A stretch of 19,576 bases of DNA from Escherichia coli (GCF_003334765.1 NZ_QOWT01000051.1); one strand, 5' to 3'; positions 1,538 to 4,355 are shown, counted from the stretch's first letter. Notes: generated by a model from the sequence alone, not told the origin. Translations and numbers: made by a program.

Positions 1538-1689
1538 GCCGCTGCTGGCGACCTGTTCGCGCAGTGACGGCAGACGATCGCCGGGTCGCCAGGCGCCAGA
1601 GGCGATCTGTTCGCAAAGTTGTTCAGCCAGACGCTGGTATTTTTTTATTCTGGTTTCTCGTCGGTCAATGCAGGTGAGCCTCGCAGTGT

Positions 1690-1730
1690 ATAACAGTGAA
1701 TAAAATTCACAACGATTTGCAAACTGTTAT
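1690..1730. promoter_or_regulatory. Nested inverted repeats in the divergent intergenic region; candidate operator for the MocR-type regulator
   Basis: ATAACAGT (about 1690-1697) and ACTGTTAT (about 1723-1730) are perfect reverse complements and flank an inner palindrome GTGAAT-aaa-ATTCAC (about 1696-1710). Position between divergent genes fits an operator; not tested. Confidence 0.3.
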
Positions 1731-1816
1731 GGTTAAATATGCCTGTTCTGTTTCTGCCCCTCATTGCCTCACACGCCTAGAATTGCGCTGAATCAATTTT
1801 TAATGCGGAGTCAGGC

Positions 1817-3217
1817 ATGTTTGGTCTTGATGCGTATCACCTGGCAAGGATCCAGTTCGCCTTTACAGTTTCATTTCACATTATCTTTCCGGCGATCACC
1901 ATTGGGCTTGCCAGTTATCTGGCGGTGCTGGAAGGCCTTTGGCTAAAAAGCAAAAATCCGGTCTGGCGCTCGTTGTACCACTTCTGGTCAAAAATATTCG
2001 CCGTAAATTTCGGCATGGGCGTGGTTTCCGGTCTGGTGATGGCCTATCAGTTCGGCACCAACTGGAGCGGTTTTTCGGAATTCGCAGGCAGTATTACCGG
2101 GCCGTTGCTTACCTATGAGGTGCTGACCGCTTTCTTCCTTGAAGCCGGATTCCTCGGGGTGATGCTGTTTGGCTGGAATAAAGTCGGTCCGGGTTTGCAT
2201 TTCTTCTCAACCTGCATGGTGGCGCTTGGCACCCTCATTTCCACCTTCTGGATCCTGGCGTCTAACAGTTGGATGCAAACGCCGCAGGGGTTTGAGATCG
2301 TCAACGGCCAGGTTGTGCCCGTGGACTGGTTCGCCGTTATCTTCAATCCTTCGTTCCCTTATCGGCTGCTGCATATGTCCGTCGCCGCATTTCTCAGTAG
2401 CGCGCTGTTTGTCGGCGCTTCGGCAGCCTGGCATCTGCTGCGCGGCAACACAACGCCAGCCATTCGCACGATGTTTTCCATGGCGTTGTGGATGACGCTT
2501 ATTGTCGCGCCGGTGCAGGCGTTAATCGGCGATATGCATGGGCTGAACACCCTGAAACATCAGCCAGCCAAAATCGCCGCGATTGAAGGTCACTGGGAAA
2601 ACCCGCCGGGTGAGCCCACGCCGCTGCTGCTGTTTGGCTGGCCGGATATGGAACAGGAACGCACCCGCTATGGACTGGCGATCCCGGCGCTGGGAAGCCT
2701 GATCCTGACGCACAGTCTGGATAAACAGGTTCCGGCGCTAAAAGAATTCGCCAAAGAGGATCGCCCTCACTCGACGATCGTGTTCTGGTCATTTCGCATC
2801 ATGGCCGGCCTGGGCATGTTAATGATCCTGCTGGGGCTCTGTGCGCTCTGGCTGCGCTACAGGCAGCGCCTCTACACCTCGCGCCCGTTCCTGCGCTTTG
2901 CGCTATGGATGGGACCCTCGGGGCTCATCGCCATTCTCGCGGGCTGGGTGACCACTGAGGTCGGACGCCAGCCGTGGGTGGTGTACGGTTTACAGCGTAC
3001 TGCCGACGCGGTGTCGGCCCACGGCGATTTACATATGAGCATTTCGTTGCTCGCTTTCTTTGTTGTCTACAGCTCAGTCTTTGGCGTCGGCTACAGCTAT
3101 ATGATTCGCCTGATCCGCAAAGGCCTGCTGGAAGATGATTCCGCGCCGCCGCCGGGCACACCCGCCAGGCCGCTTTCCGCCGCCGTCCTCGATTCTCAAC
3201 ATAAGGCACATCGCTAA
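1817..3217 (+). CDS. Cytochrome bd-type quinol oxidase subunit I (CydA/CioA family, short Q-loop)
   Basis: 466-aa polytopic membrane ORF with the conserved GWVTTEVGRQPWVVYGL motif; clearly CydA family but about 55 aa shorter than E. coli CydA, as in cyanide-insensitive-oxidase-type enzymes. GGAG ribosome-binding site 7 nt upstream of the ATG. Confidence 0.9.
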   Translation: MFGLDAYHLARIQFAFTVSFHIIFPAITIGLASYLAVLEGLWLKSKNPVWRSLYHFWSKIFAVNFGMGVVSGLVMAYQFGTNWSGFSEFAGSITGPLLTYEVLTAFFLEAGFLGVMLFGWNKVGPGLHFFSTCMVALGTLISTFWILASNSWMQTPQGFEIVNGQVVPVDWFAVIFNPSFPYRLLHMSVAAFLSSALFVGASAAWHLLRGNTTPAIRTMFSMALWMTLIVAPVQALIGDMHGLNTLKHQPAKIAAIEGHWENPPGEPTPLLLFGWPDMEQERTRYGLAIPALGSLILTHSLDKQVPALKEFAKEDRPHSTIVFWSFRIMAGLGMLMILLGLCALWLRYRQRLYTSRPFLRFALWMGPSGLIAILAGWVTTEVGRQPWVVYGLQRTADAVSAHGDLHMSISLLAFFVVYSSVFGVGYSYMIRLIRKGLLEDDSAPPPGTPARPLSAAVLDSQHKAHR

Positions 3218-4227
3218 TGGGTATTGATTTATCGGTTATCTGGTTTGTGATCATCGTTTTCGCCACGCTAATGTATATCGTGATGGATGGATTCGATTTG
3301 GGTATTGGCATTCTGTTTCCTGTCACACGAAACGCAGAGGATCGTGATGTGATGGTCAATAGCGTCGCGCCGGTGTGGGACGGTAATGAAACCTGGCTGG
3401 TGCTGGGCGGCGCGGGGCTGTTTGGGGCTTTCCCGATGGCCTATGCGGTTATTATCGATGCGCTGACCATTCCGTTGACGCTGATGCTGATCGGACTGAT
3501 TTTTCGCGGCGTGGCCTTCGAGTTTCGCTTCAAGGCCACGCCAGCCCACCGCCCATTTTGGGACCATGCTTTTCTCGGCGGGTCGATTCTGGCTACCTTC
3601 GCCCAAGGGATCGTGGTTGGCGCAGTGATCAACGGTTTCCCGGTGACCGGTCGCAGCTACAGCGGCGGGCCGTTCGACTGGTTAACCCCCTTCACTCTGT
3701 TCTGTGGCGTCGGACTGGTCGTTGCCTATGCGCTCTTAGGCGCAACCTGGCTGGTGATGAAAAGCGAAAATCCGCTTCAGGATAAAATGCGCAGCGTCGC
3801 GAAAAAACTGCTGCTGGCCCTGCTGTTGTCAATTGCGATAATCAGCCTCTGGACACCGTTAGCGCATCCGGCGATCGCCGACCGTTGGTTTACGCTTCCC
3901 AACCTGGGCTATCTGCTGCCGGTTCCGGTGCTGGTGATCGCGTTCAGCGTCTGGTTATGGCGCACACTGGGTCGTCCGGAAAACCACACGTTTCCGTTTG
4001 TGCTGACGCTCGGGCTAATCTTCCTTGGTTTCAGCGGCCTGGGCATCAGTATCTGGCCGCACATTATTCCGCCTTCGGTTACCCTCTGGCAGGCAGCCGC
4101 CCCCGCCCAGAGTCAGGGGTTTATGCTGGTCGGTGCGCTGCTCATCATTCCGGTGATTTTGGTGTACACCTTCTGGAGTTACTATGTGTTTCGCGGCAAA
4201 GTGCAACATGGCGAGGGGTATCACTGA
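3217..4227 (+). CDS. Cytochrome bd-type quinol oxidase subunit II (CydB/CioB family)
   Basis: 336-aa hydrophobic ORF; its ATG overlaps the subunit I stop (TAATG), indicating translational coupling; family assignment from membrane-protein character and operon position. Confidence 0.85.
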   Translation: MGIDLSVIWFVIIVFATLMYIVMDGFDLGIGILFPVTRNAEDRDVMVNSVAPVWDGNETWLVLGGAGLFGAFPMAYAVIIDALTIPLTLMLIGLIFRGVAFEFRFKATPAHRPFWDHAFLGGSILATFAQGIVVGAVINGFPVTGRSYSGGPFDWLTPFTLFCGVGLVVAYALLGATWLVMKSENPLQDKMRSVAKKLLLALLLSIAIISLWTPLAHPAIADRWFTLPNLGYLLPVPVLVIAFSVWLWRTLGRPENHTFPFVLTLGLIFLGFSGLGISIWPHIIPPSVTLWQAAAPAQSQGFMLVGALLIIPVILVYTFWSYYVFRGKVQHGEGYH

Positions 4228-4355
4228 TGCAACATTCTCTCTGGAAACGCCTGATGTGGCTGGTCATCCTTTGGGGCGGCAGCGTGTTGGCGCTGGCGGC
4301 GGTGGGCATGTTTTTTCGCCTGCTCATGACTGCGGCGGGGTTTAAAGCGCATTAA
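4227..4355 (+). CDS. Small single-pass membrane protein of the cytochrome bd operon (DUF2474-like)
   Basis: 42-codon ORF MQHSLWKRLMWLVILWGGSVLALAAVGMFFRLLMTAAGFKAH whose ATG overlaps the subunit II stop (TGATG). It is the tail of track ORF 3885..4355; the rest of that ORF overlaps cydB in another frame. Confidence 0.6.
   Translation: MQHSLWKRLMWLVILWGGSVLALAAVGMFFRLLMTAAGFKAH

Follow-up and report, generated by a model that had tools for sequence, protein, structure and literature searches.

A Citrobacter-type operon for a cyanide-insensitive-type quinol oxidase on Escherichia coli plasmids, with a probably decaying copy of the neighbouring ydcR gene and possible control by the YdcR regulator of the host

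Our analysis of a 19,576-nucleotide stretch of Escherichia coli DNA (NZ_QOWT01000051.1 of assembly GCF_003334765.1; hereafter 'the window') identifies, from gene order and protein families, an intact operon for a complete three-subunit quinol oxidase of the cyanide-insensitive (CIO) type composed of CioA, CioB and CydZ. As judged from sequence alignments, the operon belongs to a Citrobacter sedlakii-like chromosomal fragment which an IncF-type E. coli plasmid has acquired beside an IS3 element and which extends from just past ydcR, a gene for a MocR-type regulator, to the middle of rlhA. We consider it reasonably probable that this captured operon is governed by operator-like boxes to which YdcR binds, that it is switched on in response to a respiratory poison, and that the control is exerted in trans by the YdcR protein of the host.

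The operon comprises three co-directional genes on the + strand (1817-4355), that is, cioA (1817-3217; 466 aa) for a cytochrome bd subunit I of the short-Q-loop type (Pfam PF01654, E-value 1.1e-168), cioB (3217-4227; 336 aa) for subunit II (TIGR00203 cydB, 184.8 bits versus a cut-off of 117.3), and cydZ (4227-4355; 42 aa) for a single-helix small subunit of the DUF2474 family (PF10617, E-value 3.5e-15). Direct reading of the junctions reveals that stop and start codons share one base in both cases, being TAATG between cioA and cioB (gcTAATGgg at 3215-3219) and TGATG between cioB and cydZ (caCTGATGca at 4225-4229), and the three genes may well be translationally coupled via these overlaps. The third, DUF2474-like open reading frame with overlapping stop and start codons that a first-pass annotation of the window had proposed is thus borne out. 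The coordinates given there for the whole system (1616-4355) do enclose the operon, but they include the regulator only by its first 11 codons, since that gene extends over 239-1648. The PF10617 protein was named CydZ by Allen et al. 2014 and is found in 162 short-Q-loop cydAB operons, including the canonical cioAB of Pseudomonas aeruginosa (PMC4325964), and DUF2474 is a character of the 'CIO subtype C' in Degli Esposti et al. 2015 (PMC5322542).

The type of the oxidase is evident from comparison of CioA with CydA and AppC of E. coli K-12, the references being taken from the annotated genome. The alignment contains a single gap of 65 columns at the C-terminal half of the Q-loop, where CioA has 8 residues and CydA and AppC have 70; outside the gap, CioA is 33.5% identical to CydA and 37.6% to AppC, which compares with 60.9% between CydA and AppC. 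The counterparts of haem ligands and quinol-site residues are all kept (H21, E101, E109, H186, K252, E257, M329, E381 and R384 of CioA, aligned in the same order with H19, E99, E107, H186, K252, E257, M393, E445 and R448 of E. coli CydA). When 1.84 billion cluster representatives (50%-identity clusters) were searched, the nearest full-length relatives of CioA turned out to be proteins of 430-480 aa matched in a single stretch, and long-Q-loop proteins (518-529 aa) first appear around rank 67. Consistently, a neighbour-joining tree of 73 representatives plus references groups CioA with enterobacterial short-loop proteins, well apart from the CydA/AppC clade, and the NCBIfam equivalogs for bd-I and bd-II score CioA at 262 and 289 bits, that is, far under their cut-offs of 968 and 1025. 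The break in the Q-loop is also seen in the best matches among solved structures, which are of the E. coli bd-I and bd-II enzymes (7OSE, 292.6 bits, and 6RKO, 260.5 bits).

A long-Q-loop identity, CydABX or AppCBX, is ruled out by the alignment gap, the tree, the equivalog scores and the presence of CydZ in place of CydX or AppX. Hence the earlier assignment to a short-Q-loop, CioAB-like type, rather than to CydAB, is upheld by the 65-residue gap and the tree, and the phylogenetic placement of subunit I among CydA, AppC and CioA revealed no clustering with CydA or AppC. By these sequence characters, the enzyme is a CIO-type, short-Q-loop, CydZ-associated bd oxidase. With E. coli bd-I (CydABX) and bd-II (AppCBX) it has in common the superfamily, the haem ligands and the Q-loop residues K252 and E257; in contrast to these enzymes, its CioA is devoid of the 65-residue Q-loop insert, is only 34-38% identical, is accompanied by CydZ instead of CydX or AppX, and belongs to a separate branch. 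We place it beside CioA of Pseudomonas because of the shared PF10617 gene, the Q-loop and the literature, with no P. aeruginosa CioA among the named relatives. CioAB and CydZ of P. aeruginosa ('CIO subtype C') likewise comprise a short-Q-loop subunit I, a subunit II and a PF10617 protein, the gene for which immediately follows cioB within the operon. However, the present operon is of an enterobacterial lineage, 98% identical to that of Citrobacter sedlakii, and plasmid-borne, and its cyanide insensitivity is a prediction.

The origin of the operon can be traced with confidence. The segment 104-6019 (5.9 kb), which holds ydcR, cioA, cioB, cydZ and a remnant of rlhA, aligns in one piece to C. 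sedlakii NBRC 105722 (L003 5287-11232) with 97.9% identity over 5946 bp (blastn). Its left boundary is the end of an IS3-family element (1-103, - strand), the IS3 transposase coding sequence of plasmid pANT_425 running into 1-39, and its right boundary lies in the remnant of rlhA (ydcP; 4460-6019, - strand), a pseudogene of a U32 peptidase-family 23S rRNA hydroxylase. Compared with C. sedlakii, this remnant is cut off at 6019 and has lost 1 nt near 5663 and 28 nt near 5923; PGAP annotates it as frameshifted and without its N-terminus. Over its first 6.1 kb, the window matches E. coli plasmids such as pANT_425 with 100% identity; there, this part is located between the IS3 element and a gene for a 3'-5' exonuclease, near yacAB, IncFII repA and finO. 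The region between ydcR and cioA differs from that of C. sedlakii by one base (1803), and the differences in cioA, cioB and cydZ comprise 24 synonymous versus 10 non-synonymous codons.

The operon is found in 26 of the 5426 complete E. coli genomes (0.5%), always on plasmids of 80-240 kb and never on the chromosome; it is also carried by plasmids of Salmonella and Shigella, and the carriers are clinical, animal and wastewater isolates from several continents. A phage collection yielded no match to the operon. The full fragment with a complete ydcR is present on only 6 of the 26 E. coli plasmids; on the others, among the matches listed, the match to the first 6.1 kb starts inside or just after ydcR and ends at or before 4874, which corresponds to about 54-56% coverage. 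In the one P1-like phage-plasmid examined, the cassette is equivalent to 1455-4874 and is located near genes for Ref, a head-processing protein and lysozyme; cioA, cioB, cydZ and the upstream boxes are intact, and only 162 bp of ydcR are left. On this plasmid, pEcoUTI1e (L002 3639-10273), the cassette is situated between two helicase-annotated fragments, with no insertion sequence annotated beside it, and appears to have inserted into, and thereby disrupted, a helicase gene.

The regulator gene ydcR (239-1648, - strand; 469 codons) is divergent from cioA, with 168 bp between the two. Its product combines a GntR-type winged helix-turn-helix (wHTH) domain (PF00392, residues 3-66) with an aminotransferase-like domain (Aminotran_1_2, PF00155, residues 138-445), in which the pyridoxal 5'-phosphate (PLP) lysine is kept as K312 in SSFSK and matches, in alignment, the F-S-K lysine motif of an aminotransferase of solved structure, 1WST. 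The prediction of a divergent MocR-type regulator with a PLP domain is therefore correct. By its sequence, 86% identical over 468 aa, and by the conserved chromosomal neighbourhood, the regulator is the ortholog of YdcR of E. coli K-12. The named MocR equivalogs (PdxR, GabR, EhuR, PtsJ, YczR and rhizopine MocR) were rejected as identities, YdcR scoring under every curated NCBIfam cut-off. In E. coli K-12, the gene order is sutR-rlhA-yncJ-hicAB-ydcR-ydcSTUV-patD. Since ydcR is thus a backbone gene which stays beside ydcSTUV in E. coli devoid of cio, it is not a dedicated oxidase regulator.

A survey of 80 genome loci encoding CioA relatives covered the neighbourhood of the oxidase genes. In the lineage of the window, cydZ-cioB-cioA is inserted between rlhA and ydcR of a sutR-rlhA ... 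ydcR-ydcSTUV backbone, and the order ydcR(-) ... cioABZ(+) is found in about 45 species representatives of Enterobacteriaceae, among them Citrobacter, Klebsiella, Raoultella, Enterobacter, Kosakonia, Buttiauxella, Atlantibacter, Pluralibacter, Siccibacter, Franconibacter, Superficieibacter and others, at distances between ydcR and cioA that range from about 145 bp to 5.1 kb. In Serratia and Yersinia, a 57%-identical MocR protein is encoded divergently, 144-184 bp from cioA, without the rlhA/ydcS backbone. No MocR neighbour was found in this survey at a second enterobacterial paralog of the operon, or at the operons of Pantoea, Erwinia and Dickeya. The synteny of regulator and oxidase is therefore broad and not unique to this genome. 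As a side observation, ydcR of Enterobacter and Leclercia-type loci has as its immediate neighbour a gene for a conserved protein with two CxxC pairs (MTSYIHFRCPCCHGSQYRTSAFDV...) and a length of 61-72 aa (L022 6420-6608, L029 5054-5242, L040 2365-2583 and L046 2090-2275).

The ydcR-cioA intergenic region contains conserved sequence boxes. When the cioA upstream regions were anchored on their shared word, 45 distinct sequences of the ydcR-linked lineage could be compared, and a candidate operator of three boxes (all given on the + strand) emerged. Box 2, AACTGTTAT (1722-1730), is located 95-87 nt upstream of the cioA ATG and is invariant, or deviates by one mismatch, in all 45 sequences. Box 1, ATAACAGT (1690-1697), is its inverted partner 42-49 nt upstream of the ydcR start, the two forming a perfect 8-nt inverted repeat with 25 nt between the arms; most loci have the form (T)ATA(A/T)CAG at a comparable place, 25-30 nt in front of AACTGTTAT. 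Box 3, TCTGTTTCTG (1747-1756), is conserved as TCTGnnTCTG; its CTGTT core follows that of box 2 at a distance of 24 nt, and the box overlies the -35 position that belongs to a conserved -10 element. The latter, TAGAAT (1778-1783, + strand), conserved as TAnnAT at a fixed distance of about 21 nt after box 3 and without a recognisable -35, is probably the -10 of the cio promoter, as far as its conservation can tell. The boxes are kept whether ydcR is adjacent, kilobases away (up to 5 kb) or not within 7 kb, and comparison of upstream regions did not reveal them in front of cioA in the paralog lineage or in Pantoea and Erwinia. In the 1.19 Mb of loci that were retrieved, 73 exact copies of AACTGTTAT were counted, versus about 9 expected.

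The same elements are encountered at further loci. Upstream of ylaC, which encodes an inner-membrane protein, E. coli K-12 has AACTGTTAT-N17-CTGTTAC (L084 3825-3855), that is, cioA-type boxes with the same 24-nt spacing, and ylaC is the likely resident target of YdcR in this species. A degenerate inverted pair, ATTACAGT-N25-ACTGATAT, with the 25-nt spacing of the window, is located upstream of ydcR in the hicB-ydcR intergenic region of E. coli K-12 (L083 6925-6965) and may possibly represent a YdcR autoregulatory site in cio-less E. coli. Serratia and Yersinia exhibit CTGTTAT and (C/T)TGTCAC 24 nt apart beside their MocR gene. Buttiauxella sp. A111, with 2.9 kb between ydcR and cioA, has another complete AACTGTTAT-N-CTGTT element (L023 4162-4192) beside ydcR; this element faces a gene for a 517-aa membrane protein (4341-5894), possibly an extra member of the regulon.

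Signals of FNR-type control do not stand out. Sites of the FNR type (TTGAT-N4-ATCAA, with up to two mismatches) number 12 in the window versus 7.5 +/- 2.6 expected, which is the level of chance. Two FNR-like half-matches, TTGCGCTGAATCAA (1783-1796) and TTGATGCGTATCAC (1827-1840), flank the start of cioA but are unconvincing, and the first of them is conserved only in the Citrobacter and Klebsiella group. A consensus promoter scan, with 3 sites in the window versus 2.0 expected, is uninformative when considered alone.

The first codon of ydcR (1646-1648, - strand) is ATA in the plasmid copies, versus ATG (43) or GTG (2) in all 45 chromosomal orthologs, the start region being AGAATGAAAAAATACC in C. 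sedlakii and AGAATAAAAAAATACC in the window. Full-length plasmid ydcR is hence devoid of a canonical start codon, and the next in-frame ATG, at 1537, would drop 37 residues of the wHTH domain. In the ydcR remnant of the P1-like plasmid (L002 about 6176), the same ATA is followed by a further lesion, one more A having been deleted from the resulting A-run; because the ATA lesion is common to both, the IncF and P1-like cassettes appear to share one origin. The plasmid gene is, from its reading frame, probably a decaying copy. Chromosomal ydcR is present in 5412 of the 5426 E. coli genomes, and the recognition-helix region of its product is nearly the same as in the plasmid copy. Given the lost start of the plasmid gene, and a host YdcR that is 86% identical, near-universal and associated with the same box at ylaC, the acquired operon is probably controlled, if at all, in trans by host YdcR.

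The link between regulator and oxidase is real, yet it has already been published as a prediction and partly tested in Pseudomonas. In the comparative study of Suvorova & Rodionov 2016, YdcR is the most populated orthologous group of MocR regulators, with 65 regulators in 12 regulogs, and cytochrome oxidases are often under MocR regulators (PMC5320631). According to its supplement, the predicted YdcR targets are ylaC and CydA/CydB in Klebsiella pneumoniae, Enterobacter sp. 638 and Serratia proteamaculans, CydA/CydB in Photorhabdus, Proteus, Acinetobacter, Aeromonas, Shewanella and Vibrio, CydA/CydB together with PF10617 in Bordetella and Cupriavidus, and ylaC only in E. coli and Salmonella; the regulons of the group contain terminal oxidases, NapH-like, CcoN and CysI-like genes, and no amino-compound catabolism (PMC5320631 supplement). 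It is because of the shared targets ylaC and cydAB that we take the boxes described above to be the published YdcR motif, and we infer that boxes 1-3 would be bound by YdcR. The regulator of the window is a direct ortholog of the E. coli protein to which that regulog was assigned, with the same predicted target class and the same boxes upstream of E. coli ylaC. The published prediction, however, concerns chromosomes, whereas the present target is plasmid-borne, its cis regulator has decayed, and the host regulator would be needed in trans.

Two Pseudomonas systems hint at the signal. P. aeruginosa PA4132 (MpaR), placed in the YdcR group (PMC5320631 supplement), turns on ccoN4 and genes beside it when endogenous cyanide is present, as reported by Smiley et al. 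2023 (PMC10790758); predicted PLP-pocket residues are required, a short palindrome is located 61-62 bp upstream of the start sites, and PLP reacts with cyanide, as the authors point out (PMC10790758). Like YdcR, MpaR combines a GntR wHTH with a PLP domain, and it controls a cyanide-tolerance respiratory component encoded beside it by way of a short repeated motif which precedes the start site by about 60 bp. It differs in that its target is a cbb3 subunit and not a bd oxidase, and in that its motif, ATCTGAT, is distinct from AACTGTTAT; some enterobacterial versions of box 3 read TCTGAT, which may or may not be meaningful. In P. pseudoalcaligenes CECT5344, mocR (BN5_1899) is located directly upstream of, and opposite to, a cyanide-induced cio cluster, the proteins of which are made constitutively in a mocR mutant, a result cited there as unpublished proteomics (PMC8567248). 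The arrangement of a MocR-type GntR regulator divergent from an operon containing cioAB is that of the window, although the P. pseudoalcaligenes cluster adds nit4, dapA and other cyanide-assimilation genes and the present operon comprises cioA, cioB and cydZ only; MocR acts there as a repressor, and for the present YdcR the sign is ambiguous. YdcR of Salmonella is described as a direct activator of srfN (PMC7400052).

Taken together, we favour a scheme in which YdcR, bound to boxes 2 and 3, would act as an effector-dependent activator of the cio operon, and in which the operon would be switched on by a respiratory poison, most probably cyanide sensed via the PLP cofactor of YdcR. If the start site is put about 7 nt after TAGAAT, box 2 is centred about 64 nt upstream, near the geometry of MpaR. 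An activator is favoured because TAnnAT has no matching -35, because box 3 occupies that position, and because of this MpaR-like geometry of box 2. Box 1 being located 42-49 nt upstream of the ydcR start, ydcR would in addition be autoregulated through boxes 1 and 2. The first-pass annotation had proposed an amino compound as effector; this is not the best guess, since the only group member with a known signal, MpaR, responds to cyanide. By analogy with MpaR, cyanide is the likelier signal, and a cyanide-derived amino compound would still be compatible with it.

Several points weigh against this activator scheme. The binding of YdcR to the boxes is itself a prediction, the cyanide effector is extrapolated from a Pseudomonas homolog, and the direction of regulation is ambiguous, with two activators (MpaR and Salmonella YdcR) on one side and P. 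pseudoalcaligenes MocR, which points to a repressor, on the other. PGAP annotates a full-length plasmid YdcR, and ATA can serve as a weak start codon, so that the plasmid regulator may not be fully dead. Adjacency alone is weak evidence, because ydcR is kept in place in E. coli, which has no cio, and because wide gaps between ydcR and cioA are filled by unrelated genes in many genomes (hicAB, rcn-like genes, transporters, toxin-antitoxin pairs); moreover, two more distant CIO loci checked at random (Burkholderia and a metagenome) have no MocR beside them. These insertions, the persistence of ydcR without cio, and the operons of Pantoea, Erwinia, Dickeya and the second enterobacterial paralog, which have neither MocR nor boxes, would also fit an inherited gene order in a variable gap, with the boxes belonging to another factor or to the core promoter and with oxygen or redox regulators running the oxidase. 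We consider such a coincidence quite improbable, as the same boxes with the same spacing recur at E. coli ylaC, a locus unrelated to cio which shares a published YdcR regulog with CydA/CydB, as a degenerate pair is located upstream of E. coli ydcR, as Serratia and Yersinia keep both the divergent MocR gene and the boxes outside of the rlhA/ydcS backbone, and as FNR-like matches do not exceed chance (12 versus 7.5 expected). More serious, though still doubtful, is the idea that YdcR represses cio and is released by an inducer, in which case loss of ydcR from the plasmids would move the acquired oxidase towards stronger or constitutive expression, with host YdcR as the only limit. It would account for the constitutive synthesis of cio-cluster proteins in the MocR-minus mutant of P. 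pseudoalcaligenes (PMC8567248), a result which, as said, is cited as unpublished proteomics. The consensus scan likewise proposes an alternative TG-extended -10, TATGGT (1728-1733), inside box 2, the occupation of which would fit repression; this hexamer is, however, not conserved in other genera, whereas the downstream TAnnAT is. The plasmids have lost the regulator twice over, first through the ATA start and later through truncation, with the operon left intact, as expected for the shedding of a repressor; on the other hand, a conserved promoter without a -35, with box 3 in its place, is the usual layout for activation, and both MpaR and Salmonella YdcR activate.

Control of the oxidase by an amino acid or amine sensed by the PLP domain, rather than by a respiratory poison, appears unlikely to us. 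GabR and EhuR/EnuR, which are characterised MocR regulators, sense amino compounds as external aldimines with PLP, and both families are among the weaker profile matches of YdcR, in which the PLP lysine is conserved; ydcR also adjoins ydcSTUV-patD, a cluster for a putative ABC transporter and gamma-aminobutyraldehyde dehydrogenase, and 3-cyanoalanine, a cyanide-derived amino compound, is metabolised by the cio cluster of P. pseudoalcaligenes (PMC8567248). Yet YdcR falls under the cut-off of every named MocR equivalog, the published regulons of its group hold respiratory-type genes instead of amino-compound catabolism, the one characterised member with a signal answers to cyanide, and the E. 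coli ydcR-ydcS gap contains no exact AACTGTTAT but only a one-mismatch match. Of a similarly low probability is, in our view, that the cassette is a silent passenger of an IS-mediated capture, without phenotype in its E. coli host. It is rare (0.5% of complete E. coli genomes), and both of its flanks have decayed, ydcR by its start codon and rlhA by frameshift, 28-bp deletion and truncation. However, the three oxidase reading frames and their upstream region are intact beside these decayed neighbours, the cassette with the shared ATA codon occurs in E. coli, Salmonella and Shigella from several continents, carried by no fewer than two unrelated backbones (IncF and P1-like), and the differences of the oxidase genes from C. 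sedlakii are mostly synonymous (24 versus 10).

Further features were noted elsewhere in the window. A GC-rich hairpin (4424-4444) is located between the convergent cydZ and rlhA genes; the terminator-like site is called on the - strand, and no T-run follows it on the + strand. The backbone is mosaic, and the identity to pANT_425 ends at 12141, just past finO, and resumes at 14222. Between these points, two overlapping reading frames on the - strand (12317-13129 and 12927-13280) resemble a single ParB-like gene of the leading region with a frameshift. Further downstream are remnants of an IS66-family element (17013-19214, - strand), including an open reading frame for a 325-aa transposase which, as far as the translations tell, is apparently without its N-terminal part, and small accessory reading frames at 18589-18936 and 18933-19214.

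The enzyme type, the small subunit and the pairing with a YdcR/MocR regulator have been described before; new is the context, that is, a mobile, regulator-less Citrobacter cioABZ operon on IncF and P1-like plasmids of E. coli, Salmonella and Shigella. None of the 5426 complete E. coli genomes has a CIO-type oxidase on the chromosome, yet one well-preserved cassette circulates on two unrelated backbones. It is then tempting to speculate, albeit only tentatively, that the CIO cassette is a mobile accessory trait which could shed its own regulator since its operator plugs into the YdcR regulon of the host. If this were true, E. coli YdcR would be a sensor of cyanide, and thus of a respiratory poison, and the plasmid would provide inducible, poison-tolerant respiration, e.g., beside cyanogenic Pseudomonas in urinary or wound infections, or under gut sulfide. 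The cassette would then illustrate how a resident regulator can adopt an acquired operon, and its operator, matching that of host ylaC, might offer a simple experimental handle on the signal to which E. coli YdcR responds.

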